NCBI GenBank assembly: GCA_000002435.2
Contig: CM018791.1
Direction: 5' to 3' (one strand)
Source: Giardia intestinalis
Lineage: Eukaryota
Length of the DNA stretch: 64,000 nt
The position numbers were made by a program, and so were the translations under genes. Shown here piece by piece: positions 1,179 through 29,047 of the stretch; within the stretch, counting starts at the first letter, position 1, and every line of letters starts with the position of its first letter. The notes beneath the pieces were generated by a model that was not told where the DNA came from, searched no databases, and saw only the letters and a list, made by a program, of their open reading frames with translations.

Positions 1179-3065
1179 ATGGGAAAGGGAACCACGCCTA
1201 AAACGTCCCAAATAGGCTCGGCTGCCGCCAGCCGAGTTACTCCTTCGTCCATGAAGATCTCTCACACAAATATAAAGAGTAAAGCGCAGACCCCGACCTC
1301 GTCCATGACCAAATCTTTGAACAGCACAGGTCAGCGCATTAAGGGGATGGTCAAGTCCCTCTTTGGCACTAAACCTCTCATCCAGGAGGATATGGAGCCC
1401 TCAGGGTCTTCTTCGGAGATGATTCCCTTGCCAACCAAGCCTATACCTGGCAAATCCCAGAGTTCGCAGACAAGTCACACTCCTAGGAGATCAACAAGGC
1501 AGTCCGATGACAAGTCTTCCACGCGTGAGACTGGACCTGCGCCCGTGACCGCTAGTAGCCCCGATGCACAGCAAGCAGAGACCCTCTTTCCTGCGGCGAT
1601 CGCCACGCTTGCCACCATGGCCAACGCAGCACTCGCGCAGGCCCTCACGAACCCTCAGGCGTCTGCAGCCCTGACATCATCACTTATTTCGTCTCAAGGT
1701 CTCTCTACACGGGACTTAGCACTAACGACCTCAAATTTACAGCCGCCTCAACCTAGTATCGAGTACCCAGCCTCCTTTGGGGCTAATTACAATTCCCTAA
1801 GCAAATCTGTGACACAGCCACCTCCGTCTATTAATCAGCCATCTCTGCATCCATCGGCCGCGCCTACAGAGCAAGAGTATGTTATTTTTCCTGCGTCAAT
1901 CATAAACATGTACATGGCCATGAGAAATAAGGGAACAGATGTGGCACAGAGCTCCGTACAGCACGTGAGACCAGCGATGGCAAACTCTTTACCGGTACAG
2001 CAAGCTACAGAGTCTTTTGTGTCCACGAAGCGCACGGTCCACTTTGAGGCTCCATCAAAGGATACAGTTGGCCTCTCCAATTCGACGGGGTCTATAATCC
2101 AAGGAAGCGCCCTTGAGATATCAGCAGGGGCTGCGGAGAAGGAGCCAGCTCCTAAGAAAGTCATCATACGTGAAGATCCCAAGCCCGTGGAGCCTCCAAA
2201 GCAGGATACTAGTGTCGCTGACGCAAAACCAGCTGTTCCCGATCAACCCAAGAATGAACCTTCGAAGCCGACTGGTACGTTTTTGTTTGGAAAGGCAGAT
2301 TTTAGTGTAACCAGTTCAGCTTCAACAGCTAAAGATGGGCAACCGCCCTTAGCTGATTCTGCTTCTACATCCAACACTCAGAACAAGGCTGTTACTTATT
2401 CATTTAAATTTGGAAGCACCTCTGAGGATACGAAGAGCAATACATCCTCTAATCCGCCGGGGCCTGATTCCGATTTGAAGAAGGAGGAGACTGCAACTGG
2501 AGATAGCGCTGCATTCAAATTATCGCAAACAGACAATGTCCCGAAACCTCCATCGAAAGGTTTTGTCTTTGGTGCCCCAGTAGCGCCTGCACAGCAACCA
2601 CCGCCTCCTTCAACTCAGCTAACCACAAAGCAAGAGCAGCCTCCAGAGCAAAAGAAGGATCACCCGGTCTTCTCATTCGGGTCTATGTCTGCATCGACTA
2701 CACAAGGGTTTGGATTTAAACCCCCGGCAGATGAGCCCAAATCGACACCAGTCGCACCTACTGCAGGCTTCTCCTTCACTGCCCCCCAGACGGGCGCTAA
2801 ACAGACAGGTGCGTTTTCCTTCCAGGTATCTACCCCTCCTGTGCAATTTGGAGCGACAGGAAGTAACGCCGCATCATCTACCCAGCCCGGTTTTAGTGGC
2901 TTTGGTGGGTTTGGCGGCGGCTCCTCTAGTCAGTCCGTCTTTGGTGCGGGCGTGTCTCCATTTGGTACACAACCTTCAACGACCGACGGGGCCTCGGGAC
3001 CTCAGGCAGGATCCTTCGGCTCCTTCACCTTCTCTAATCCGTCAATCAAACCGCAGCTCTCTTAA
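1179..3065 (+). CDS. FG-repeat protein, nucleoporin-like (FxFG/GFG/SFG repeats in an S/T/P/Q-rich disordered protein)
   Basis: 628-aa ORF whose ATG is preceded by caaataagaaagcagaagATG. The C-terminal half carries FLFGK, FKFGSTS, GFVFGAP, FSFGSMS, QGFGFKPP, GFSFTAP, GAFSFQVS, GFSGFGGFGGGSS, SVFGAG, SPFGTQPS and GSFGSFTFSNPS separated by polar spacers. This is the classic FG-Nup architecture. Confidence 0.65.
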   Translation: MGKGTTPKTSQIGSAAASRVTPSSMKISHTNIKSKAQTPTSSMTKSLNSTGQRIKGMVKSLFGTKPLIQEDMEPSGSSSEMIPLPTKPIPGKSQSSQTSHTPRRSTRQSDDKSSTRETGPAPVTASSPDAQQAETLFPAAIATLATMANAALAQALTNPQASAALTSSLISSQGLSTRDLALTTSNLQPPQPSIEYPASFGANYNSLSKSVTQPPPSINQPSLHPSAAPTEQEYVIFPASIINMYMAMRNKGTDVAQSSVQHVRPAMANSLPVQQATESFVSTKRTVHFEAPSKDTVGLSNSTGSIIQGSALEISAGAAEKEPAPKKVIIREDPKPVEPPKQDTSVADAKPAVPDQPKNEPSKPTGTFLFGKADFSVTSSASTAKDGQPPLADSASTSNTQNKAVTYSFKFGSTSEDTKSNTSSNPPGPDSDLKKEETATGDSAAFKLSQTDNVPKPPSKGFVFGAPVAPAQQPPPPSTQLTTKQEQPPEQKKDHPVFSFGSMSASTTQGFGFKPPADEPKSTPVAPTAGFSFTAPQTGAKQTGAFSFQVSTPPVQFGATGSNAASSTQPGFSGFGGFGGGSSSQSVFGAGVSPFGTQPSTTDGASGPQAGSFGSFTFSNPSIKPQLS

Positions 3066-3746: not shown

Positions 3747-6700
3747 TCAGCAGCGAGCTGCCTTTAAGAATTGTCTGTATATGTTACTCGTACGCACAAA
3801 CGTTATGGAGTGCATGCTATAAAGGTAAGCTTCTAAAAGCCTTGCTCGTTCCCTAATAAACTCCGGCTTCCAGCCGCCCAAAGCGTAAGGCCTGTCGGGT
3901 GGGATGTCAGGCAAAGTCGCTGCAGGATAGGCCGCAGAGATTGCCGCGTGAAGCTCCTTGACCTCCGAAAAGCGGCAGCTTATGTGGAGCCTCCTGCCGT
4001 CCATGCCCAGCTCAATGTAGTAACTAATGAAGGGTCGCGACCCAGAAATAATAACAGTGCGGTGGCTCAACACCTTGACATAGAAACTGGAGCATGACGA
4101 GGTGTCGACGAACAGGGATACATGTCTGCCGCTATCCCTATGCTTGTTGCTTCTAACTATGGACGATGCAGCTCCATGGCCACTCCTTCTAATTGCACTC
4201 AGTGTCTGCACAGACGGATCATACTCAACAGAATCGGATTCTCTCTCTAGTTGAGCCTCGATGTTGTGCCGTAAAGCCTGAAGCTCCTTGTCGCGCCTTT
4301 CACGAAGGCGAATCTCACGCATCAGCTCTCTATCCAAAAGAAGGCCACTATTAGTTGTGTCTATCGCAGAAGACGTCGTAGAGTTGGACTCTATCTGCGA
4401 ATTGACAGCGAAGCGTTTCCTCTCTGCCTCAAGTTTTTGGTACTCACGGTCAGCTTTGCGATTGGCCCGTTCAATCTCCTTGTCCATCCGCAACTTCTCT
4501 TCGGCTAAAAGACGCCGCAGCTCTTTCTCTTCCTGCCGTTTCTTCTGCTCCTCAATCTTTCGAAGTTGCTCTTCACGCAATTTCTCTGCCACGGCGATGT
4601 CTTCGCTGTGAGAGGACTCTGTTAGAGATGATACGGTTGTAGACGTCTCGCGCTCCATAGGCTCCTTCTTGTCCTTCTGCTGCTTCTTAGCAATCTTCTT
4701 ATCTGCACGACGCGTCTCGGTAGTGGATTTGATGGTGGAGTGGGGCTTAGACGAAGAAGTGTCTCCGTTAATCTTCTGTGGCTTTTCTGCTGGTGCGTCT
4801 TTAGTTTCCTTAATGAGGTCGGGCTTCTTCTTGATTGCGCTAGTCTTCTTTTTGTCTGCTTCATGCTTCGGTTCCTTCTCAGGCTTCTCAAGCTTCTTCT
4901 CCTTCTTCTGCTTGGCAGCATGATGCTTTTCCTTGGCATGTTCATCCCTCTGATGCTCCGCTTTATGCTTGGTATGTGATTTGGGAAGATGCTTTGGTGG
5001 AGTGTGTAGTTCTACAACAGGTGTATTCAGCCTATCAACATACAGGCTATCACTATCCTCATTATCGACGACCAAACTTATCGCAGGAGTATCAAGCCTG
5101 GATACAACCAAAGAGTCCTCCTGCACTTCTTGTTCTGTACGTAGAGCTGCATGGCCTGTCTCGTCCTCAAGCCCTTGAGGCTCTTCCTCTTGGCAGTATA
5201 GGTCCTCCTCGGCCTGGCGCAGCATCTCCTCCTCTTCACGTCGCGCCTGCTCAAGCATCTCTGCCTCTTTGCGAGCCATTTCAATATCAAATTCATCCAG
5301 CGTCTCTTCCGGAAGCTGAAGTACCCCTTCCGGTGTAGGCTCATATTCTTGTTCGTGGACCGACACCTGCTGTTCAATATAAGGCTCTTCTTGGCATACA
5401 TCAGAAGATTGTGCTAGCCCAAACGACCCATCGAGAACGTCAGGAGTTGCGACACGATCAACAACCAAATCCTCAGAAGGCAATAGCAGGCTCTCTGGCC
5501 CATGCGAGTCAGGTGGGGCAAAGTCGTCCGGAGTACTATCACAAGGAGTGACCTGACGATGGACCGAGCTTGCACAGCTATGTTCCTCTAGGGCTGGCTG
5601 TCCCCATTGAGATATCTCGCTTTTGAGTTCATCAATAAGGTCACTGTCTTGTATTCTCTCGAATGAATCCGATTCAGTCTTGTTAGAAATGTGCTCCAGA
5701 GGTGGAGCTGTCTCCATATCAGGCAAGCTCTCCAGGTCCTTGATCTCAGGGGTGTGTACTACCGCATCCTCAATGATAGCCTCCGCCTCACGAATGCTTC
5801 GTTCTGTCTCCGGGTCTGTTTGCAGTCTGGAAACAACATCCTCAGATACGTACTCATCAGCGTTGGAGAAGCTTCGCAAAAGCTCTACCTCCTGACTGCA
5901 TTGCGGTTCCTCGCTCAGGACCTGCTGTAAAGACTCGTCACAAGGTAGAGCCATGCTTATCTCCTCGCGGCTCTCAATAGGTACTAGCTGTTGTGGTTGT
6001 ATGTCCCTGAAGACTCTGTCCGCTCCAACAGCTGCGCGCAAACGCAGAATCTGATCTATGACCAGCATCTTCCTGACTCTGCGGAGATGCTCGAGCAGAG
6101 CTGCTGAGTCTTCTGCTTGAGCGGGGTCGACGACCTCTGGCCCTTGAGCAAAGGCTGTCTGAGGACTGGGGTCAATGGGGACTGAATCAGAAGGCGTAGG
6201 TACCCTGGAGACGCATATCGGAACGGCTGAGATGTCATTGTCTGAGAACGGCATAACTGGAGTCACATCAGAAAAGGCAGCCAAATCTGGGGCAGGTGCC
6301 TCACTAATTGCGGCAGGCGTCGATGGCGCATCATCAAAGCCAAAGAAGCCGAAAGCATCATTAGGCTCGATAGCGTCGGGGACCTCAGCGGCGCCATCCG
6401 CAAGGTTAGCCCCAAAGCCGAACATTTCATCCGGCTGCTCTGCAGGAGGGTCATTGGTGTTTGTTGGTTCGAGCATGTATTGTGGCTGGACATCATCGTT
6501 GTCGGGATTCTCGGGCCTAGGGGCCTCATCCTTACAGGTGTCCACGGGCTGGTCTTGTGGCTCATCATCAATAGGCCCTGCCTCCAATTTGGGTTCGTCG
6601 TTGTGCAGTTCCTGAGGATCATTGTAAGCATTATCTTCTGGCAAGCCATAGGCATATGCGTATGGGTTGGAACCATCACCGGCCACGTAAGGGGCGCCAT

Positions 6701-6824
6701 AGTAGTCCATGTCCGCGGCCATTGCGTAGGGGTTCTGGTGGTCACCAGTGGTCTCGTCCTGGCTCGTCCCGTAGTCCCCCCATCCATAGGCTTGGTATCC
6801 GCCCTGCTCCTGATCACCGTCCAT
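3747..6824 (-). CDS. PX-domain protein with an acidic N-terminal region bearing (D/E)MFGF and DAFGFFGFDD motifs, long coiled-coil and Lys-rich segments, and a C-terminal PX domain
   Basis: C-terminal PX signature CRFSEVKELHAAISAAYPAATLPDIPPDRPYALGGWKPEFIRERARLLEAYL (R-F-S-E ... LP ... P ... RR..LE.YL). The track start at 6881 is GTG (plus cac). I place the start at the first ATG, 6824, behind cttaaaaaaATGg. QPDEMFGFGANL and NDAFGFFGFDDAP motifs lie at about 6331-6427. Confidence 0.8.
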   Translation of the reverse strand: MDGDQEQGGYQAYGWGDYGTSQDETTGDHQNPYAMAADMDYYGAPYVAGDGSNPYAYAYGLPEDNAYNDPQELHNDEPKLEAGPIDDEPQDQPVDTCKDEAPRPENPDNDDVQPQYMLEPTNTNDPPAEQPDEMFGFGANLADGAAEVPDAIEPNDAFGFFGFDDAPSTPAAISEAPAPDLAAFSDVTPVMPFSDNDISAVPICVSRVPTPSDSVPIDPSPQTAFAQGPEVVDPAQAEDSAALLEHLRRVRKMLVIDQILRLRAAVGADRVFRDIQPQQLVPIESREEISMALPCDESLQQVLSEEPQCSQEVELLRSFSNADEYVSEDVVSRLQTDPETERSIREAEAIIEDAVVHTPEIKDLESLPDMETAPPLEHISNKTESDSFERIQDSDLIDELKSEISQWGQPALEEHSCASSVHRQVTPCDSTPDDFAPPDSHGPESLLLPSEDLVVDRVATPDVLDGSFGLAQSSDVCQEEPYIEQQVSVHEQEYEPTPEGVLQLPEETLDEFDIEMARKEAEMLEQARREEEEMLRQAEEDLYCQEEEPQGLEDETGHAALRTEQEVQEDSLVVSRLDTPAISLVVDNEDSDSLYVDRLNTPVVELHTPPKHLPKSHTKHKAEHQRDEHAKEKHHAAKQKKEKKLEKPEKEPKHEADKKKTSAIKKKPDLIKETKDAPAEKPQKINGDTSSSKPHSTIKSTTETRRADKKIAKKQQKDKKEPMERETSTTVSSLTESSHSEDIAVAEKLREEQLRKIEEQKKRQEEKELRRLLAEEKLRMDKEIERANRKADREYQKLEAERKRFAVNSQIESNSTTSSAIDTTNSGLLLDRELMREIRLRERRDKELQALRHNIEAQLERESDSVEYDPSVQTLSAIRRSGHGAASSIVRSNKHRDSGRHVSLFVDTSSCSSFYVKVLSHRTVIISGSRPFISYYIELGMDGRRLHISCRFSEVKELHAAISAAYPAATLPDIPPDRPYALGGWKPEFIRERARLLEAYLYSMHSITFVRTSNIYRQFLKAARC

Positions 6825-19547: not shown

Positions 19548-21347
19548 ATGTCTAATAGGTTTACCACCCAGACGGTGTTGGACTCCGTCCTCAAGAGCCG
19601 GGGCCTGTCCAGCTCAGACACGGAAATGCATGAACTCCCTGCTAGGTGGTCAGCAGTGGCGTCACACCTGTCTTCTTTTTTGCAGTGCGAAAATAACCCG
19701 CTGGAGTGCTACACAGCGATGTATGAGGCGGTCATAAGCCAGCCATGTCTCTCCTTCGAGCAGGACTGCCAGTGTGGGTCGTGCTCAGAGCGCGTGACGG
19801 AGTTCTTCCATTTGGGACCTTGTTCTCACAAGCTCTGTAAAGCCTGCCTCAGAAAGATGTTTGACCAACTCAATGATGAATGTCTGGTCTGCAATGAACC
19901 TATTAGAGAGCTCGCCTTCTGCAAACAGCCTGGCTCCATGCCTCCTCCACCGGCGCTTGTGCCGCCGCCTCTTGCTCTTCCTACCAAGGCCACCCCTGCC
20001 CCTGCACCCGCCTGCGAAGAGTGCCCTGTCTTTGCTTCTATTCTTAAAAAGAATGGTCTGCCACCAGACACGTCCGGAATTGTCCATGGATACAAGAAAA
20101 TCAAACAGATTAATTTACTGGAAGATGACTACATATCGTCTCCTCCTACGGGACAGACCCTTATTCCGGAGGAGGACTTGATATACCTCAGGGACTATAT
20201 GAAGTTTCAGTTCCTACACTTCTTCGAGGAAGTCGATGCCAGCGAGACTATCTTTTGCGCATGGAAGGGCGGCGACGCGGCTGAGCACCAACTCGAGTGT
20301 CCTCTCCGCGAAGATACGTGCAAGAATAAGGCACTTGGTTGCAGCTTTATGCAGCCATACATCATTGTAGCGTATCACGGGATAAACTGCGAGAATATAT
20401 GCCTCTACGAAAGTCAGCCGTGCCCTCTATGCAATAAGACAGTACTGAACAAGGACATGTACACCCATGAGGTCACTTGCTCTAAGAAGCTCATAGAAGA
20501 GCATAAGGAGAAGGTCAAGTCTTCGCAGAAAGAGTACATCGCTGGGGCTCAAGCTACTTTCGCTGCTGAGGCCTCCAAGGAAAACTCTCCTATGAAGAGC
20601 GCGTCTCCCAACAATCCGAATAGCAATCCAAGCATCGTCTCTCCTGAGAACAGGTCCGATGATGACATCAAGGGTATCACGATTAGGGATGCCTGCGAAA
20701 ACATGAACGTGCTGGGAGAGATGTATTGCGACCTTGTGACAGCTGCTCGCCCAGATATATACTCTAGCACCTCCAGCGCTGTCAACTCTTCTACTGACGT
20801 AAGGGGAAGCAGGGAGCTTTTACGCGATCCAACGGAGATTGTTGTGATAGGGCCTGCTGAGCTCTCACCTGAACAGGTCAAAGACATAAAAAGAACCAAG
20901 TCTCCCAAGTCTCCGAAGAGGTCTGGTGCATCGGAAAAGAACGATAACTCGAGGAAAGAAAGGAAGGGAACATCAGAGGCGCGTGTCTTATCTTACGAGG
21001 TCTGCTCCACTGGGTCTGGCCATCCGTTTGTGGTCTACAAGATCGAGCTCCCAAGCCAGGACGGCGGAGAGAGCGTAGTCATCCATAAGCGAATGAAGGA
21101 GATCAAGGCGTTCCACAAGCGCCTGCAGCGCAACTTTCCAAGTATCACGCTGCCCAAGCTTCCGCAGGACAGGCCTTGGGCACTCGGAGGGAACAAGCTT
21201 AAGTTTGTTCAGGAGCGCTCCAGACTTTTGGAGGCATATTGTGGAGACATCAATCACAATGCGATGATATATAAATCGAGGATTTATAAAGACTATATTA
21301 ACGAGCAATGCGCTTATGTGCCGATCACTTATGCTCTTAAAGAGTAG
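19548..21347 (+). CDS. RING-finger + TRAF-type zinc-finger + C-terminal PX-domain protein
   Basis: RING-like CQCGSCSERV...GPCSHKLCKACL...CLVCNEPI (about 19764-19908). TRAF-ZnF-like CPLREDTCKNKALGCSF...INCENICLYESQPCPLCNKTV...HEVTC. PX domain YKIELPS...KRMKEIKAFHKRLQRNFPSITLPKLPQDRPWALGGNKLKFVQERSRLLEAYC. ATG behind taagtaaaactttATG. Confidence 0.8.
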   Translation: MSNRFTTQTVLDSVLKSRGLSSSDTEMHELPARWSAVASHLSSFLQCENNPLECYTAMYEAVISQPCLSFEQDCQCGSCSERVTEFFHLGPCSHKLCKACLRKMFDQLNDECLVCNEPIRELAFCKQPGSMPPPPALVPPPLALPTKATPAPAPACEECPVFASILKKNGLPPDTSGIVHGYKKIKQINLLEDDYISSPPTGQTLIPEEDLIYLRDYMKFQFLHFFEEVDASETIFCAWKGGDAAEHQLECPLREDTCKNKALGCSFMQPYIIVAYHGINCENICLYESQPCPLCNKTVLNKDMYTHEVTCSKKLIEEHKEKVKSSQKEYIAGAQATFAAEASKENSPMKSASPNNPNSNPSIVSPENRSDDDIKGITIRDACENMNVLGEMYCDLVTAARPDIYSSTSSAVNSSTDVRGSRELLRDPTEIVVIGPAELSPEQVKDIKRTKSPKSPKRSGASEKNDNSRKERKGTSEARVLSYEVCSTGSGHPFVVYKIELPSQDGGESVVIHKRMKEIKAFHKRLQRNFPSITLPKLPQDRPWALGGNKLKFVQERSRLLEAYCGDINHNAMIYKSRIYKDYINEQCAYVPITYALKE

Positions 21348-21426: not shown

Positions 21427-23535
21427 ATGGAGGAGTTTTTTGGGTTTTCAGACGCGCCGGTTGCTCCTGGCCACGTCTCCGAGGAGGCTCTGTTCTTTGG
21501 CTTTGATGACGCCTCCGCTAACCAGCCGCAGCCCCCCGTCTCCATTCCATTTCCAGTTATCAACCAAGTCGCGACCATCCCAAGGTTTCAGGAGTTCCAA
21601 GAGTTCCAGGAGTATGACTCGCCAGAGCTTCGGGCAGCCAGGCAACCCAAGTTCCTGGATCCAGCACTATTTGTGGGCCCTGGGAGAGAGGACGTCATTC
21701 ATGATGTGGTGATAGATGAGGCAAAGTACGACTTCGGCTACGACCTTGACTACCTGCGAGAAACCACAGATGAGATGAAGACCGAAGAGGACGAGGAGGA
21801 CATAATAAGTAGGCTTCCCTACGGCTTTTCCTCCAACTACACATACAAGGACGATATGGCAGATCTTATGCGTAGCAGCCCTGTGAAAGACATTGTTCTC
21901 CCCCGGGTTGGTGTCACTGTAGAGTGCTCCGACAGTGACATGGAAGCAGAATTCAACCGTCTGCAAGCTATAGACTTCAACGAGAAGCGCAAGGACATAG
22001 AACAGATGCTTCGCATTCGTAGAGAGCAGGAGCACCAGAGAAGGCAAGAGGAAGAGCAAGAACGACTGCGGCAAGAGGCCCTTAAAGCTCAGAGCTCAGT
22101 TCCATCCCGGATCCCCTCTATTCCGGCCGCCGCCCCATCTGCCACTATTGCCTCTGATAGAGCAGTCGGACCTGCTGCCGTTCCAAGCCTTCCTCCCCTG
22201 TCTCAGCCAATGGTTGACGTTGCTCCGCAGCCAGAGCCCCAGCCAATTATGGATCTCCTGATAGCTCCAAAGGCAGTGGAGGCGGTGTATGCCCCGTTAC
22301 AAGCTACCCCTGTACAGCCTATCCATACCCAATCTTCCATTTTAGTGCCATCAGCTCCACCAGCGGCTACTCTGGCCCCTCAAGTATGCTCTATTGAGCA
22401 ACCTCCCTCAGAGGATCCTCAGCTAGAGGAAATGTTCGGATTCCAGTCACAACCCGATATTAGTTACTCCCCAGAAGTCAAGGATCTAGATAAGATAGAG
22501 CCAGACTTGACCGCAGATCCTGCCACAAATCCGGTTATCGTGGACCAGCCTGTCTCAAAGTCGTGGAGCGCAAGAGGATCGATACAGCAGCAGCTAGACA
22601 ATCTACAGAGCGAAATAAAGCAACTAGAGCAAGACTCCATGTTTTCTAAAGAAGATAGAAAGCGGAGCAGACACGCAGAAGCCCGTAAATATCTCGAAAC
22701 CAGAACATATACAGACAACTACGACGTTTTCAGACCGTCGCACCATCTACAGAAGTACTATGCAGCGAAGAAGCCAAAACCAAAGCCAAAGGAAACCATT
22801 TATTCCCCATACTCAGAGACGGAGCTATCGAACCAGCGCATGCAAGTGCGAGCAGAGCTGGAGGCTCAGAAGCACAAAGAGCAGCGGGAGCGCAACTACT
22901 ACGAGAAAATTGAGATCAAAAGGCTAACAGCCATGTACTCCAAGCTCGAATCTGAATTAACCGTCAAAGCCATCAGTGAGGAGCTTGCACAAGAAAAACG
23001 TCAGGAATTTGAAAAGTACTTCAAGAGCGCGTCCCTCCTTGAAAAGAGCTCTGACATGTACACCAGCACACACGATGATAAGACCATACGCATACAGGTA
23101 TCTGAGCATAACGCTTTGCATCTCCCCCGGTCCCTCTTCTTCACCCCTGATGGGAAGTATAAAAACTACGTTAGATACCTGGACTATAGGAAGGTTTTCG
23201 ACCGCTTCACGCACACGCAGGTCCTTATGTTCATATTCGCGGTGTCCTCGCAGGAGCGAAAGTTGAAGTGCATTTCCAAGACTTACGAGGACTTTCATGT
23301 CCTTCACAAGGAGCTTGTGGGGGCCTTCGGGTACTCAGCAGTACCTGGGCTTCCCTCCTTCCGATCCATGAACATGGGTGGCGGTAGACATGAGGTCATT
23401 CATGACACTCAAAAGAGACTAACCAAGTACCTGACTGAAATCAACAACGTCCAGGCTCTGCGCACATCCGCCATCTACAGGAGCTTCCTCAAGCACCAGG
23501 ACCTCAACTTTTTCCAGGGGATGCATCGCCACTAG
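21427..23535 (+). CDS. PX-domain protein with N-terminal acidic FFGF motifs (MEEFFGFSDAP, LFFGFDDAS, EEMFGFQSQPD) and a central coiled coil
   Basis: C-terminal PX-like segment KTYEDFHVLHKELVGAFGYSAVPGLPSFRSM...QKRLTKYLTEI. ATG behind tttaaaaacaatcgccATG. Second gene of a head-to-tail run of three. Confidence 0.8.
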   Translation: MEEFFGFSDAPVAPGHVSEEALFFGFDDASANQPQPPVSIPFPVINQVATIPRFQEFQEFQEYDSPELRAARQPKFLDPALFVGPGREDVIHDVVIDEAKYDFGYDLDYLRETTDEMKTEEDEEDIISRLPYGFSSNYTYKDDMADLMRSSPVKDIVLPRVGVTVECSDSDMEAEFNRLQAIDFNEKRKDIEQMLRIRREQEHQRRQEEEQERLRQEALKAQSSVPSRIPSIPAAAPSATIASDRAVGPAAVPSLPPLSQPMVDVAPQPEPQPIMDLLIAPKAVEAVYAPLQATPVQPIHTQSSILVPSAPPAATLAPQVCSIEQPPSEDPQLEEMFGFQSQPDISYSPEVKDLDKIEPDLTADPATNPVIVDQPVSKSWSARGSIQQQLDNLQSEIKQLEQDSMFSKEDRKRSRHAEARKYLETRTYTDNYDVFRPSHHLQKYYAAKKPKPKPKETIYSPYSETELSNQRMQVRAELEAQKHKEQRERNYYEKIEIKRLTAMYSKLESELTVKAISEELAQEKRQEFEKYFKSASLLEKSSDMYTSTHDDKTIRIQVSEHNALHLPRSLFFTPDGKYKNYVRYLDYRKVFDRFTHTQVLMFIFAVSSQERKLKCISKTYEDFHVLHKELVGAFGYSAVPGLPSFRSMNMGGGRHEVIHDTQKRLTKYLTEINNVQALRTSAIYRSFLKHQDLNFFQGMHRH

Positions 23536-23611: not shown

Positions 23612-26600
23612 ATGGAGGACATTGCCTACACCGACGGATACGCTGCGCAGTACGGAGATAATTATGCATATGATGGGTATGGCTATGGTGGTGACCTGGC
23701 TGTGGGAGATTACAATCCGTACGGAACGGACTATGGTTATGATGCAGGAGGCTACGACTATGGTGCCGGGTACGGTGGGTATGGGAATCAAGAGACTGGA
23801 TATGGCGATCAGACATATGGATATGGTGAGCCTGCTGAGCAACCGCAAGACAGTTTATCGCTTAAGCTGGACGAGCCGAAGCCGTTTACTGAGCAAGACG
23901 ATGGGAGGTCCCTCGTCGTCCGTACTGATGCGGCGTCTGTGTCCATGGATCCTTTTAGTGCGCCCATAGATACAGTGACAGAGCCCATAGGTTCACAGAC
24001 GCACACGAGCTCCGCTTTTCCACCTGTCTCTCAGGACTTGCTGAACTCTATCAGGGTCCAGCAAGAGACTAGTGGAAACCTGAGTAAGTCTCCAAGCAAA
24101 ATCTCAAGCAGGCCTGCCTCTGCTAGACTTGACGAGCTTGATAAGGTAATCGAAGAAGATGCAGAACAGCTTAATAGGGAGGCCAAAACAGATACTCACG
24201 TTACTGGTGCTGCCCCCGATACTAGCGATATGTTTGGCTTTACTGACCAACCGGCGGCACCAACAGCTACCGAAGAGCCTGTCGCAACTGCTGGTGACGA
24301 CATGTTTGGATTTGGGCTAGAAAGTGACGCGCACGATGCAACGGTTCAGCCCCCAGTTGAAGATGCAGGGCCTGCTCTACCTGATAAAGAAGCTCCCTCC
24401 ACTGAGGCCGAAGACGATATGTTTGGCTTCGCCACATCTCCTCAGGAGACCATAGCCAGCCCTCCAGCAGGCTCCACCGCCCCTGCTGCTGAGCCTGTTG
24501 ACGACATGTTTGGCTTCACCGATCCTGCCGTCGAATCAGCGGCTACTGCAGAGCCAGGAACAATGGAGGGCGATGATATGTTTGGATTTGGCCCCTCAGA
24601 AAGCACACCTAAAGATCCTGACACTGATGCATCTGCAGTAGCTAAGGATGTAACGGTGGACGCTCAAGATGCTGCCGATGATATGTTCGGTTTTGATGGA
24701 GCGGGCTCCCCTGCAGAGGCTCCTGCACAATCAACCGAAGCAGTAGCAAGCCCAGTTGCTGACTTGGAGACGGACAGCATGTTTGGCTTTGATTCTCCGC
24801 CAGCCCCAGCAGATAATACTACTACTGTGCCTGTGGATGATTCGGCGGATGACCTGTTCGGATTTGGGCCTTCCACTTTAGATGCACAAGGTGAGCCCGC
24901 CCAAGATGCTCAGCCAGATATTCAAGATGTGGCACAAGTCTCCGCTGACAGCATGTTTGGCTTTGACTTGCCAGCTGATGCCTCGGCAACTGTGGAGCCA
25001 TCAACTACCGGCCTTGCTACTGAGAAGCCAGAGGATTCTCCTGTCGATGACATGTTCGGCTTTTCTCCAAACGAAGCAGCAGCTACAGCCAAGTCAGATG
25101 AGGATCAAGAGATAACGCCGGTGAACACCAAGACTTTAGACGAACCATTGTCAGTAGCAAATGATTACACCCAACCAACAGCTGGGCCCTCAGATGACAT
25201 GTTCGGCTTTGGAAACAGCGCAGATCTTCCTCAAACAGATTCTGTACCCCACTCTGGAGCCACGGCTGATAGCATGTTTGGATTTGACTCTGTACCAGCA
25301 ACAGGGGCCTCGGTAGAACCACCAACAGAGACGCCAGAGCTTCACGACGCATCTCAGACACAACCTACTTTGGACATGCCAACAATTCCAGAGCACATCC
25401 CAACTATAGAGGATAACCAAACGGACCTGTCACATGAGAGTCAAAATGAGAGTCAAGTTGCAAGTGAAGAGTCTGATCAGCTAAGAGAGACCAATGAGAC
25501 GCTGGAAGGAGAGGAAATGAATAAGGAACTGGCACAAGAGCCCGCTGTAGAGGATATGTTTGGCTTTGGGGATGCATCAGCGCCAGTGGAGGATTCCTCA
25601 ACAGAAAAGGCCACTGAAAGCCACCCAACTGAGCCACCTAATTTAGCAGATCTTCCACCTCCTGTGTCTGCATCATCACTGCTTCCCGTGCAGACACTTG
25701 AGTCTGCGAAGCAATCCGCAAGAGCTGCAACTACCCCAGTGGCCGATATGGCCATTGATATAGATTCTATGATCTCGGCTGCACTAGTTCCACAGCAACC
25801 CTCCCCCGCTCCTGAACAGAAGGTCGAGGACCAAGTTCTTGACGAATCCTCGCCTAACGTGATAACTGCAGAGCTTCCTCCCATTGTTGTGAAGGGATCT
25901 TTAGAAGAGGCCAACGACAAGTCTGCCGCAGAGTCGCAACATGAACCAGTAGAGCTCTCGGAGGACCGTGACCTCAGTAAAGATATCGAGCTGGTTGCTC
26001 AAGATCCTCTACCGGCCGAGGAGGATACGCAGGATATTTTTGTTGAGCCAGCTGTGCCAGTTGAAGCTCTAGAAAGGTTGGCGATCAGCGAAACGTTCAT
26101 CAAGCTCCAGGAGGAGCTTCAATTTACATACCTGATGCCAGAGCCTAACCGCGAAGAACTAGACAAGCTCCAGATGACTGATCATGAGCAGCAGCTTATT
26201 CAACTTAAGGACGAAGCGGAGCGGCTACAGAGAGAGAATAAGGTGCTCGCAGGCAGAAGTGCGGCTCCCAGGCATCTCCACCCTAACGAGTTTGATAGCA
26301 AATCTATCTCAGTTAGCTTCTTCGAGGGTCTTCTGAATGAGCCCACCCACAGTGATGGCATATCCCTAACGACTGGGGAAGAGCTTCGGCTCTTGGCGAT
26401 TCTGGAGCAGGGAGACTACGAAGCACTTGATGCTCTTCACGGCATGTCTCCAGAGGAGCTTCAGTTAATGGAGCAACGAGAACGCGAGTTCAATTTGAAG
26501 CTCAAGGAACTCACCGACCGCCGAGACGAGCTGTTGTACAAGGATGATACGGAGGCTTTAAAACTCATTGAGGAAGAGATCTGGGCCTTTGTAGACGCTG

Positions 26601-29047
26601 AGGAAGAAAAGAAAATGCGCATCCAAGCGGCAGACGACCTTTTGAAAAAGCGTGCTCAGGAGGAAGAGGACCGACGTCGTGCTGAGATAGAAGCAAAGAT
26701 CAAGGAGGAGCAGGATCGTGTTGCAGAGGAGCGCCGACTCCAGGAAGAGATGATAGCGCTCCAAAAGAAGCAGCAGCAAGAGTATGCAGAGCAGGAGACT
26801 AGGAAAGCAGATCTTCTCCGTGAGGCCATGGAAAAGGAGCAACTAGAGCGAATTGAGGAGGAGCAGCGCATAAAAGCAGAGGCACGACGACGCCTAATCG
26901 ACGATCTGGAGGCCACAGCTGAACGCGCAGCCGCCGAGGACCGGATACGGGTTAAGGCTGAGTTGGAAGAAATGGCCAGGATCAAAAAGGAACTGGAGGA
27001 GGCTGCCCGGACGGCCAGCGAAGAGAAGCGAAAGCTTCTTCTACAACAGAAGGAGCAATTGGAAAGAGAAATGGCCGAGACAGCAAGACGACACGAGGAA
27101 GACGTGGCGCGTAGGCACAAGGAGCTGCAAACTCTTCATGAGGAGCGGCGGAAGATGCGCGAACAACGCTTAGCCAGCTCAGAACCGATGGATGAGCTTC
27201 TTCGCGAAGATGGCAACGATGCCTCTGCCGATCCGTTCTCATATGCGTCTCTGGACATTGAGCGCAGAATCAGGGAAATGAAAGCCCAGTTAGAGAAGGA
27301 GATGACCGAAAAGATGGCCCTAGAGCACGCTGACCTCAATGCTCTAGAGCAGGAGTTGGCTGCTAAGAAGCTGTCGACCTTACAAGCAGAACGACTCTTA
27401 AGCACGGCTGCAAGCGATACAGTGGCACGGCTCGATAACGAGGATCGTCTCTTTAACGAAGCAATGGATGCCAAGCGCCAGGAGCTGCTTCTTTTGAAAG
27501 AACAGTATGGACTCGTGCGTCACCAGAACGAAAGTCAGCGCGCCTTGCACCTAGAGGAGCAGAGAAAGGCTAAGAAGTTAGCGAGGTTAGTCGAACAAGT
27601 TGCCGAGCTAGCCGAGAAGAAGCACAATTTAGAAAGAAAGATTGCCCATGGAAACAAAGAGTTTCACAAGAAAGAGAGCAAGCTGGTGGCTTCTAACAGC
27701 AAAGGCGCACTCAAAGCGTTGAGAAAGGAGCACGCTAAGGAGCACGAGGCGTTGGAGACGCAGCTCTCTAGCGTCTCAGAGCAGTTACGCAGAGCAAAGA
27801 AGCAGCTCAAGGTACTTAACCCCCAGGGAGAGACTTCTGATATGGACCGATCTCTTAGTGTCAAAGACTATTTGCGCTCCACAGATCGGAGTGAGAAAGA
27901 GCAAGAAGTGTCCGCTGCAGATAAGGACCATTCCCAGCCGCGTCTGTCCGTCTTCGAGGGAGGCTCTCTTGGCCAACCTTCGTTGGTAAGCGGCCATGGA
28001 ATTGGAACAGCGATGTCAACAGGTGTGGACCACGGAGATGGAGGGAGAAAGCAACATGCATCCAGTGACTTGCCTGTAGCGCTGCAGAAGCTGAGAGAGG
28101 AGCACGCTCGCAGGCTTGAGAAGATTGAGCAGCGACGAGCAGCCTTTGCTTCGGAAAGGGAGCAGCTTCAAGCCCAGGCACACGCGCTCGAGGCTCAGCT
28201 TTCCAAGCCCGTCAACGTTCCTGATTCTAAGCTACGCACCAGAGAGCAGCGCAAGCAGATCATTTTCGCAGAGATGAATAGAATGGAAAAGCTGTCGAAG
28301 GCACACATGGTTGAAGTTAAGCCTCAGATCCCAGAGAAAACAATCGATGACATTCTTAACGAACGCCGCAAACGACACGGGGAGGAGCGTGAGCAACTAA
28401 AGAACATGGCAGTGCGCTTTACATCTGCGTACGATCGGCATTCCCGGGTCTCTGTTAACATGGACAGCAGCGACGACGAATGGAATGACCTAGCTGCACG
28501 GACCTCCTCACGTTATGCAGATATTTCTGCTAAGCCACGCTCGATGCAGGCGCAGGTCCGCCAATTTGCATCTGATCGGATAGATCCTGCCTTCAATAGC
28601 TACATCGAGGCCCCTGTGCGACCTGGCTATGAGTCCTCTCTCCTCTCGTATGTGAAGGTGAGCTCTGACCCTACTACGTGCCACCCGACCAAGTTTGTGG
28701 CTCGGCTCACTGCACACACCTGGTGCATTGAGCAGAAGAGCAAGCCGTATGTGGTCTATACGTTTACAATCAGCACAGAGAAGGGTGTCTTTGAAGTAGC
28801 GAAGCGCTTCTCTGAGCTGCGTGAGCTGGACAAGGCGCTCCGTCGCGTTTTCCCAACAGTTACTTTGCCCAAGTATCCGTCGTCTATGGGAGGGAAGTTT
28901 ACTGATGAACAACTGGAGGAGCGGAAGCGGCTCCTTGGGCGCTATATGAGCCAGCTGAATCAGATCGCGGTCATTAGAACAAGCCAGGTGTACAAGGAGT
29001 TTATACAGATGAAGGTGAGACACGATATCCTTGTATATCACCGGTGA
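23612..29047 (+). CDS. Large PX-domain protein (1811 aa): acidic disordered region with 13 (D/E)(D/S)(M/L)FGF motifs, about 700 aa of E/R/K-rich coiled coil, and a C-terminal PX domain
   Basis: PX domain YVVYTFTISTEKGVFEVAKRFSELRELDKALRRVFPTVTLPKYPSSMGGKFTDEQLEERKRLLGRYMSQL. ATG behind ttaaaaaaaagtgtctgacggATG. Repeats counted directly (see the repeat feature). Confidence 0.85.
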   Translation: MEDIAYTDGYAAQYGDNYAYDGYGYGGDLAVGDYNPYGTDYGYDAGGYDYGAGYGGYGNQETGYGDQTYGYGEPAEQPQDSLSLKLDEPKPFTEQDDGRSLVVRTDAASVSMDPFSAPIDTVTEPIGSQTHTSSAFPPVSQDLLNSIRVQQETSGNLSKSPSKISSRPASARLDELDKVIEEDAEQLNREAKTDTHVTGAAPDTSDMFGFTDQPAAPTATEEPVATAGDDMFGFGLESDAHDATVQPPVEDAGPALPDKEAPSTEAEDDMFGFATSPQETIASPPAGSTAPAAEPVDDMFGFTDPAVESAATAEPGTMEGDDMFGFGPSESTPKDPDTDASAVAKDVTVDAQDAADDMFGFDGAGSPAEAPAQSTEAVASPVADLETDSMFGFDSPPAPADNTTTVPVDDSADDLFGFGPSTLDAQGEPAQDAQPDIQDVAQVSADSMFGFDLPADASATVEPSTTGLATEKPEDSPVDDMFGFSPNEAAATAKSDEDQEITPVNTKTLDEPLSVANDYTQPTAGPSDDMFGFGNSADLPQTDSVPHSGATADSMFGFDSVPATGASVEPPTETPELHDASQTQPTLDMPTIPEHIPTIEDNQTDLSHESQNESQVASEESDQLRETNETLEGEEMNKELAQEPAVEDMFGFGDASAPVEDSSTEKATESHPTEPPNLADLPPPVSASSLLPVQTLESAKQSARAATTPVADMAIDIDSMISAALVPQQPSPAPEQKVEDQVLDESSPNVITAELPPIVVKGSLEEANDKSAAESQHEPVELSEDRDLSKDIELVAQDPLPAEEDTQDIFVEPAVPVEALERLAISETFIKLQEELQFTYLMPEPNREELDKLQMTDHEQQLIQLKDEAERLQRENKVLAGRSAAPRHLHPNEFDSKSISVSFFEGLLNEPTHSDGISLTTGEELRLLAILEQGDYEALDALHGMSPEELQLMEQREREFNLKLKELTDRRDELLYKDDTEALKLIEEEIWAFVDAEEEKKMRIQAADDLLKKRAQEEEDRRRAEIEAKIKEEQDRVAEERRLQEEMIALQKKQQQEYAEQETRKADLLREAMEKEQLERIEEEQRIKAEARRRLIDDLEATAERAAAEDRIRVKAELEEMARIKKELEEAARTASEEKRKLLLQQKEQLEREMAETARRHEEDVARRHKELQTLHEERRKMREQRLASSEPMDELLREDGNDASADPFSYASLDIERRIREMKAQLEKEMTEKMALEHADLNALEQELAAKKLSTLQAERLLSTAASDTVARLDNEDRLFNEAMDAKRQELLLLKEQYGLVRHQNESQRALHLEEQRKAKKLARLVEQVAELAEKKHNLERKIAHGNKEFHKKESKLVASNSKGALKALRKEHAKEHEALETQLSSVSEQLRRAKKQLKVLNPQGETSDMDRSLSVKDYLRSTDRSEKEQEVSAADKDHSQPRLSVFEGGSLGQPSLVSGHGIGTAMSTGVDHGDGGRKQHASSDLPVALQKLREEHARRLEKIEQRRAAFASEREQLQAQAHALEAQLSKPVNVPDSKLRTREQRKQIIFAEMNRMEKLSKAHMVEVKPQIPEKTIDDILNERRKRHGEEREQLKNMAVRFTSAYDRHSRVSVNMDSSDDEWNDLAARTSSRYADISAKPRSMQAQVRQFASDRIDPAFNSYIEAPVRPGYESSLLSYVKVSSDPTTCHPTKFVARLTAHTWCIEQKSKPYVVYTFTISTEKGVFEVAKRFSELRELDKALRRVFPTVTLPKYPSSMGGKFTDEQLEERKRLLGRYMSQLNQIAVIRTSQVYKEFIQMKVRHDILVYHR
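24227..25567 (+). repeat. Array of 13 in-frame copies of an acidic (D/E)(D/S)(M/L)FGF(T/G/D/A/S) motif, with spacing of about 25-40 aa
   Basis: SDMFGFT, DDMFGFG, DDMFGFA, DDMFGFT, DDMFGFG, DDMFGFD, DSMFGFD, DDLFGFG, DSMFGFD, DDMFGFS, DDMFGFG, DSMFGFD, EDMFGFG. The nucleotide core ga(t/c)ga(t/c)atgtt(t/c)gg(c/a)tt is itself conserved. Spacers are Ala/Pro/Glu/Asp/Ser/Thr-rich. Confidence 0.85.

Follow-up and report, generated by a model that had tools for sequence, protein, structure and literature searches.

The closest described counterpart of the element reported here is found in AP180, in which a disordered region beside the lipid-binding domain contains the degenerate clathrin-box motif D(L/I)(L/F) eleven times (PMC5004861). 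In AP180/CALM each motif is weak and function is brought about through avidity, and the Eps15 and epsin adaptors carry repeated acidic-aromatic motifs (DPF/DPW arrays) in disordered regions. A further protein of this general design is specified by a 64,000-nucleotide stretch of Giardia intestinalis contig CM018791.1 (assembly GCA_000002435.2), the whole of which is referred to below as the window. This is GlPXD2, the product of GL50803_16595, which possesses thirteen copies of an acidic MFGF hexapeptide upstream of a C-terminal PX domain. The clathrin assemblies of Giardia are static, coated vesicles are lacking, and the adaptors that bind clathrin are lineage-specific. Like AP180/CALM, GlPXD2 combines a phosphoinositide (PIP)-binding domain with a long disordered region containing about a dozen acidic-hydrophobic motifs, tens of residues apart, and by analogy its motifs may be individually weak and act through avidity. 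That the MFGF hexapeptide is a functional, conserved and PX-anchored multivalent motif is well supported; that it is a clathrin or adaptor ligand, and which domain would receive it, we reasonably infer by analogy.

Using the pattern [DES][DS][ML]FGF, exactly 13 copies of the motif were found in GlPXD2 (Table 1), the number given in the initial annotation of the window, which was made from the sequence alone. The span which it assigned to the array, 24227–25567, is correct at its end, whereas the first motif begins at 24224, one codon earlier. The start-to-start spacings are 24, 39, 29, 24, 35, 32, 25, 33, 33, 49, 25 and 94 amino acids, so that the first 12 copies lie 24–49 residues apart, rather than the 25–40 first estimated, and the last is preceded by a gap of 94. 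The 480 amino acid array region is rich in Ala, Asp, Pro, Thr, Glu and Ser, as had also been recorded, and all 26 of its phenylalanine residues fall within the motifs. Among 100,000 composition-preserving shuffles of this region none reached 13 FGF tripeptides, the maximum being 3. Over the 27 long open reading frames (ORFs) of the window (19,896 amino acids), 15 hexamers of the form [DE][DES][MLIVF]FGF were observed against approximately 0.01 expected from composition. The occurrence of the array is far above chance, and the enrichment beyond amino acid composition on which the initial annotation leaned is present. All 15 strictly acidic hexamers, together with every other acidic-flanked FGF-type motif, are in GlPXD2 and its paralogs GlPXD1 and GlPXD4; such motifs occur in three of the four PX proteins of the window and in none of its 23 other long ORFs (Fisher p = 0.0014).

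A full-length homolog search with GlPXD2 yielded four ortholog clusters with 98, 72, 69 and 67% identity. The 72% cluster represents assemblage B (GS), and the most distant pair derives from runs ERR3333380 and ERR3333381, plausibly dog assemblages C and D, for which genomes have been reported under PRJEB32663 (PMC6939161). All of the ortholog loci are syntenic with the window. The four lineages contain 13, 13, 15 and 15 copies of the motif, the higher number being found in the ERR3333380 and ERR3333381 lineages; it is thus retained, at 13–15 copies, in three other lineages of Giardia duodenalis, and spacer lengths are mostly kept despite this variation. The consensus over the 56 pooled instances is A-(D45/E7)-(D44/S9/E3)-(M49/L5/V1/I1)-F56-G55-F56-(G18/D18/T12), with D or E at position -3 in 52, D, S or E at position -2 in all 56, and M in 49. 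In none of these 56 was a motif phenylalanine replaced by tyrosine or tryptophan.

Codon alignments were analyzed by the Nei-Gojobori method. Since synonymous sites were saturated in all regions (pS, the proportion of synonymous differences, ≥0.75), leaving dN/dS undefined, nonsynonymous divergence (dN) was compared between regions. The motif codons gave a dN of 0.025–0.064 with 88–95% amino acid identity, the spacer codons 0.28–0.47 with 40–58%, and the PX domain 0.02–0.06 with 88–95%. The hexamers therefore appear to be constrained as strongly as the folded PX domain, the spacers being about ten times freer, although this contrast is somewhat inflated by an aligner which anchors on the motifs; copy counts and residue invariance are independent of alignment. 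There is good support for MFGF as an iterated short linear motif maintained by selection, and the low motif dN together with its retention in the other lineages upholds the earlier claim of a functional motif and not compositional noise.

The structure of residues 1–900 was predicted using AlphaFold from a four-sequence alignment, which is shallow, so that the model serves as supportive evidence only. Residues 192–616 had a mean predicted local distance difference test score (pLDDT) of 40 and no secondary structure. Values of 50 or more were reached only at single positions matching nine of the 13 motifs (270, 299, 322–324, 357, 415, 449, 531, 555 and 649). The array, which carries a net charge of -94 in 465 amino acids, is also classed as disordered by charge-hydropathy analysis, so both approaches agree with the disorder that had been proposed. 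The E/R/K-rich coiled coil placed after the array corresponds to two predicted helical rods, the first of which shows 81–88% amino acid identity between lineages; long helices are consistent with that description, while coiling is not addressed by a monomer model. A C-terminal PX domain, also proposed at the outset, was identified by Pfam. Its nearest solved relatives in the PDB are the PX domains of SNX27 and SNX17, and like sorting nexins it binds phosphatidylinositol 3-phosphate, PI(3)P (PMC7058353); unlike them, GlPXD2 has no BAR, FERM, PDZ or other SNX accessory domain by Pfam.

Outside the array, GlPXD2 contains two DPF tripeptides, both invariant in the four lineages, which could be ligands of the AP2 appendages. 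The second falls in a low-pLDDT break between the rods (model residues 313–332; D327, P328 and F329 of the alignment). The acidic Tyr/Gly-rich N-terminus is invariant in most alignment columns across the four lineages, and the N-terminus of GlPXD4 (approximately 6615–6824, minus strand) is likewise acidic, Tyr/Gly-rich and of low complexity, with NPY at amino acids 31 and 53. The sole element predicted with confidence within the N-terminal 190 amino acids of GlPXD2 is a short conserved helix, residues 141–154 (QDLLNSIRVQQETSG; 24032–24073, plus strand), with a block pLDDT of approximately 74, which includes the tripeptide DLL.

Published work places the PX proteins of this locus in the clathrin network. 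ORFs 16595 and 7723 (GlPXD1) were among the interactors of the Giardia clathrin heavy chain (GlCHC) reported by Zumthor et al. 2016 (PMC4954726). GlPXD2 is located at the peripheral vacuoles, and in co-immunoprecipitation (co-IP) it gave strong reciprocal signals with GlCHC, AP2 alpha and AP2 beta and strong one-sided ones with AP2 mu and sigma (PMC7058353), which bears out the association of PX proteins with clathrin-linked endocytic vacuoles named in the initial annotation. In the same study GlPXD1 was reciprocally and strongly linked to GlCHC, to the putative clathrin light chain GlCLC and to AP2 beta, and GlPXD4 gave a strong GlCHC pull-down, a reciprocal interaction with GlPXD2 and a weak, one-sided signal with AP2 beta. 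Among the PIP binders the putative light chain (Gl4259) was present only in the GlPXD1 and GlPXD2 interactomes (PMC7058353). The recombinant PX domain of GlPXD2 binds PI(3)P and phosphatidylinositol 4,5-bisphosphate, PI(4,5)P2, in vitro, and overexpression of HA-GlPXD2 leads to clusters of peripheral vacuoles on which both clathrin and PI(3)P are detected (PMC7058353). GlPXD3 surrounds the vacuoles with a coat of its own, which lies cytoplasmic to the clathrin foci (PMC7058353).

The array was compared with the patterns of known motif classes, the clathrin box following ELM and the definition of D(L/I)(L/F) being taken from PMC5004861. The likeness first suggested, to DPF, FxDxF and WxxF motifs, was not upheld: none of the 13 array motifs matches the AP2-appendage patterns DP[FW], FxDxF, WxxF or [DE]x1-2FxxFxxxR. 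Nor were matches found to the gamma-ear/GAE core [FW]G[PDE][FWLM] with an acidic flank, or to the strict W-box, NPF, LEDGF-IBM, FAM21 LFa and FFAT patterns. The gamma-ear/GAE motifs and the FxGF motifs bound by the LEDGF IBD/TND do share with the array an acidic run, a phenylalanine, a glycine and a second aromatic residue; these are however arranged as F-G-F in GlPXD2 and as F-G-x-F or F-x-G-F in the others. FxGF peptides of the LEDGF IBD/TND-binding kind are found in nuclear transcription factors. AP-1 is not reported in the sections examined on the GlPXD2 interactome. When methionine is allowed at position 1 of the clathrin box, four of the 13 copies match (MFGFD).

Our tentative reading, drawn from the analogy with AP180 and held at rather less than even confidence, is that the thirteen (D/E)(D/S)MFGF hexapeptides form a PX-anchored, multivalent ligand array whose receptor would most likely be the N-terminal domain of the Giardia clathrin heavy chain. 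The hexapeptides would be strung along an acidic, disordered tether of approximately 460 amino acids. The PX domain would fix the protein on membranes containing PI(3)P or PI(4,5)P2, at the interface of peripheral vacuole and plasma membrane, and the helical rods (approximately 240 and 185 residues) would hold the N-terminal half off the membrane. Each MFGF would use Met-Phe-x-Phe and the acidic residues before it to dock weakly into a folded clathrin-assembly domain, as D(L/I)(L/F) of AP180 does with the heavy chain; the summed weak contacts would then provide high avidity, tethering and cross-linking the static clathrin assemblies. GlPXD1, with three copies, and GlPXD4, with two to three, would present the same ligand at lower valency. 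Clathrin is put forward as the receptor because GlCHC is the one strong partner common to the three motif-bearing PXD proteins, and because D[ML]F, present in 10 of the 13 GlPXD2 copies, resembles the AP180 motif. The two invariant DPF tripeptides could alone explain the binding of AP2, which would leave MFGF free for clathrin. The vacuole clustering seen on overexpression of HA-GlPXD2 fits a multivalent cross-linker.

A number of points weigh against clathrin as the receptor. The clathrin heavy chain of Giardia is highly diverged. The strict clathrin box, L[IVLMF].[IVLMF][DE], has no match in the whole of GlPXD2; strict D(L/I)(L/F) is found in one of the 13 copies (DLF), methionine taking the place of Leu/Ile elsewhere, and the invariant Gly-Phe tail is without counterpart in AP180-type motifs. 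No array was recovered by profile outside the G. duodenalis complex, so the reading has no deep evolutionary support, and the orthologs compared are all close relatives. GlPXD3 co-immunoprecipitates reciprocally and strongly with GlCHC and AP2 (PMC7058353); since it has no motif, a protein can evidently join the clathrin network without one. Finally, the co-IPs were cross-linked, which makes direct and indirect contacts indistinguishable (PMC7058353).

AP2 might instead be the receptor, through the alpha or beta2 appendage or another surface, which would make GlPXD2 an Eps15-like scaffold clustering AP2. The reciprocal co-IPs of GlPXD2 with AP2 alpha and beta, and of GlPXD1 with AP2 beta, are as expected on this account (PMC7058353), and appendage ligands are typically, as MFGF is, acidic-aromatic repeats in disordered regions. 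GlPXD2 has in common with Eps15/epsin both this arrangement and, with its AP2 co-IP, two conserved DPF tripeptides. These DPFs however lie outside the array, the repeat unit of which is MFGF and not the DPF/DPW of Eps15/epsin; being canonical and invariant, they could account for the binding of AP2, and MFGF matches no appendage pattern. GlPXD4, which bears the motif, gives only a weak and one-sided signal with AP2 beta against a strong one with clathrin (PMC7058353). We regard AP2 as a possible but rather unlikely receptor.

It is unlikely, too, that the array serves some other Giardia-specific or accessory component, candidates for which are Gl4259, the PHear domain of GlNECAP1, the dynamin-related protein and the SNAREs. 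The motif is apparently restricted to Giardia, which would suit a lineage-specific partner. The putative light chain of Giardia has no detectable sequence similarity to canonical ones, and NECAP PHear domains bind aromatic-acidic motifs. Gl4259 was pulled down only by GlPXD1 and GlPXD2 among the PIP binders, although its signal with GlPXD2 was one-sided and weak, and the GlPXD2 interactome includes the SNAREs Gl5785, Gl14469 and Gl10013 and, at low stringency only, GlNECAP1 (PMC7058353). No candidate in this group is favored by sequence.

The aromatic residues might, with a probability that we judge to be small, act as stickers in a stickers-and-spacers condensate comparable to those of cohesive FG repeats or of Eps15/Fcho, perhaps together with the Tyr/Gly-rich N-terminus. 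They are evenly spaced (23–49 amino acids) along a disordered chain that is without other Phe, Trp or Tyr and that neighbors the conserved Tyr/Gly-rich low-complexity region. Overexpression results in large membranous clusters, and GlPXD2 and GlPXD4, both of which have the two features, interact reciprocally (PMC7058353). On the other hand, the Met-Phe-Gly-Phe core is strict, never takes Tyr or Trp and retains Gly 55 times out of 56, which is more suggestive of stereospecific recognition by a pocket than of generic pi-stickiness, and the charge of the array should strongly oppose homotypic condensation. FG nucleoporins likewise possess iterated Phe-Gly motifs in disordered regions otherwise lacking aromatic residues, but the GlPXD2 spacers are strongly acidic (-94), a PX domain is present, and the protein resides at peripheral vacuoles and not at the nuclear pore. 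The spacers of nucleoporins are typically polar or basic. The likeness is superficial. In a more speculative and improbable version GlPXD2 would be more than a point-to-point adaptor: its 13–15 invariant MFGF units and the conserved Tyr/Gly-rich N-terminus would assemble into a cohesive meshwork or condensate, anchored by PX and like that of the FG nucleoporins, which with GlPXD4, GlPXD1 and clathrin would build the static, non-vesiculating clathrin assemblies of Giardia, perhaps gating fluid-phase entry at the neck between vacuole and plasma membrane. If true, it would be a lineage-specific answer to holding a clathrin lattice without turnover.

At the DNA level, Tandem Repeats Finder revealed no tandem repeat in the array, and the 13 copies are encoded by 11 distinct 18-mers. 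In a self-alignment of the array DNA only the 18-nucleotide motif cores and one 90-nucleotide pair matched, the latter (24226–24315 and 24502–24591, 70% identity) being an old internal duplication. Recent tandem duplication or gene conversion was considered as the source of motif identity and rejected, as there is no tandem array and the codons differ between copies. Distinct 18-mers without a tandem repeat point to conservation acting on the protein and not on the DNA, and the repeat is to all appearances ancient and held at the protein level. A neutral relic of internal low-complexity duplication, of which the 90-nucleotide pair and the shift from 13 to 15 copies between lineages might be remnants, is effectively excluded by the motif/spacer contrast in dN at saturated synonymous sites, and has against it also the differing codons and the retention of the motif in paralogs which otherwise share only the PX domain.

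Returning to the comparison with AP180, the lipid module of GlPXD2 is a C-terminal PX and not an N-terminal ANTH domain, a helical rod of approximately 700 amino acids separates it from the array, and the motif is longer and stricter, with methionine for Leu/Ile. With a different lipid module, a different motif class and no detected homology, GlPXD2 is, on sequence grounds, outside the AP180, epsin and Eps15 families. The initial annotation had spoken of a novel adaptor-recruitment module. The design is not novel, AP180, epsin and Eps15 being long known and the link of GlPXD2 to clathrin and AP2 being published; what looks new is the MFGF motif class and its assignment to the Giardia PX proteins. 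A text search found neither FGF nor MFGF mentioned as a motif in the published Giardia work examined, and a literature search for 'MFGF' gave, among the matches listed, only unrelated papers on fibroblast growth factor. The legend to Fig 1A of PMC7058353 names 'positions of repetitive motifs', for which the text provides no sequence or function, and its authors may have drawn the GlPXD2 repeats there. GlPXD2 represents a known type of adaptor, a lipid-binding module joined to a disordered array of presumably weak motifs, in a variant specific to its lineage.

A peptide which three of the clathrin-associated PX proteins share, and which the coat-forming GlPXD3 lacks, provides a mutable handle, and bears on how the static clathrin assemblies of Giardia attach to membranes. 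If the clathrin terminal domain is the receptor, the avidity design of AP180 would have arisen also in a deeply divergent eukaryote, with another motif and another lipid module; if it is something else, the array would represent a new module for protein interaction at the organelle with which the parasite feeds.

The distribution of the motif was investigated with a 30-position profile built from 17 motif units of the window, which was run with HMMER on a set of 1.84 billion representative proteins (E ≤1e-3), a search in which single or diverged copies elsewhere would not reach significance. There were five matches: the GlPXD2 representative (13 matched stretches, E 2e-34), a GlPXD2 fragment, GlPXD1, GlPXD4 (E 5.9e-5) and one metagenomic protein. 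It therefore seems that arrays of the motif do not extend beyond the Giardia duodenalis complex. The metagenomic protein, the only match from outside Giardia, is represented by P0037/P0038 (ENA metagenome; 174/230 amino acids on contigs of 1.2–1.8 kb); it contains three D(D/E)DDLFGF[QG] units, the sequence around them being basic and rich in Ser, Thr and Lys, and has no Pfam match.

The paralog motifs listed in the initial annotation are all present, except that the third motif of GlPXD1, which had been described as N-terminal, lies well inside the protein (Table 1). In two other lineages the GlPXD1 orthologs keep all three motifs, including the extreme N-terminal MEE[FIM]FGFSD. A third GlPXD1 ortholog (L001, from ERR3333380, 2–1342) is partial, the N-terminal half being missing, and its middle motif occurs in duplicate (IEEMFGFEPQPEEMFGFQPQ). 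This duplication, together with the 15 as against 13 copies in GlPXD2, indicates that motif number shifts by gain or loss of whole units. There is no FGF in the sequence of GlPXD3. Beyond the PX domain, nothing but the motifs aligns between the paralogs, apart from a weak match of GlPXD2 to GlPXD4 in the Tyr/Gly-rich N-terminus.

Table 1. Positions in the window of the GlPXD2 gene, its motifs and domains, and the neighboring PX-domain genes
Feature	Position	Strand	Basis
GlPXD2 gene (GL50803_16595; UniProt A8B344; G. intestinalis WB XP_001710121.1), 1811 aa	23612..29047	+	ORF and exact-sequence lookup
Acidic Tyr/Gly-rich low-complexity N-terminus, aa 1-75, one NPY (aa 35)	23612..23836	+	Sequence; pLDDT < 50
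DPF tripeptide, aa 113-115, outside array	23948..23956	+	Regex; D113, P114 and F115 invariant in four lineages
Array of 13 [DES][DS][ML]FGF hexapeptides, aa 205-652	24224..25567	+	Pattern match, disordered acidic region
Array motifs 1-5	24224-24241, 24296-24313, 24413-24430, 24500-24517, 24572-24589	+	Pattern match
Array motifs 6-10	24677-24694, 24773-24790, 24848-24865, 24947-24964, 25046-25063	+	Pattern match
Array motifs 11-13	25193-25210, 25268-25285, 25550-25567	+	Pattern match
Rod 1, E/R/K-rich predicted alpha-helix, aa 947-1187	26450..27172	+	AlphaFold model residues 67-307, pLDDT ~70-85
Second DPF, aa 1207-1209 (ADPFSYASLD), loop between rods	27230..27238	+	Regex; invariant in four lineages
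Rod 2, E/R/K-rich predicted alpha-helix, aa 1217-1402	27260..27817	+	AlphaFold model residues 337-522, pLDDT 75-91
PX domain, aa 1724-1799	28781..29008	+	Pfam PF00787, E 1.3e-13, 51.7 bits against a cut-off of 21.6
GlPXD1 gene (GL50803_7723; A8B343), 3 motif copies	21427..23535	+	Pfam PX, motif positions
GlPXD1 motif EEFFGF	21430-21447	+	Pattern match
GlPXD1 motif ALFFGF	21487-21504	+	Pattern match
GlPXD1 motif EEMFGF, aa 334-339	22426-22443	+	Pattern match
GlPXD3 gene (GL50803_16596; A8B341), RING and PX, no motif	19548..21347	+	Pfam RING and PX
GlPXD4 gene (GL50803_42357; A8B322), DEMFGF and fused DAFGFFGFDD	3747..6824	-	Pfam PX, E 2.1e-10
GlPXD4 motif DEMFGF	6414-6431	-	Pattern match
GlPXD4 fused motif DAFGFFGFDD	6336-6362	-	Pattern match

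The identity of A8B344 with GL50803_16595 and GlPXD2 is given in Table 1 of Cernikova et al. 2020 (PMC7058353), where the gene carries the annotation 'liver stage antigen-like protein'. The window contains four of the six Giardia PX-domain genes, those for GlPXD4, GlPXD3, GlPXD1 and GlPXD2, all inside 26 kb, and the last three are arranged head to tail. The order of the PX genes is preserved in assemblage B and, for PXD3, PXD1 and PXD2, in the ERR3333381 lineage. The PXD family of Giardia has been termed species-specific (PMC4954726).

Metagenome DNA was scanned for three MFGF codon blocks spaced 24–34 amino acids apart. No acidic array was found among the matches listed (at least 120 loci), a result that is uninformative on relatives of Giardia. 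Many environmental contigs (L022, L023, L025, L031, L035, L038, L042 and others) contain 72-nucleotide tandem repeats, one frame of which reads '...TISHVMFGFxDNxxQFHGLSGLA...', and are unrelated to Giardia. Within the window, the hypothetical protein GL50803_16478 (1179–3065, plus strand), which has no Pfam match, possesses non-acidic GFGF and GFGGFGGG sequences near its C-terminus, an FG element that looks to be of a different, glycine-rich kind.

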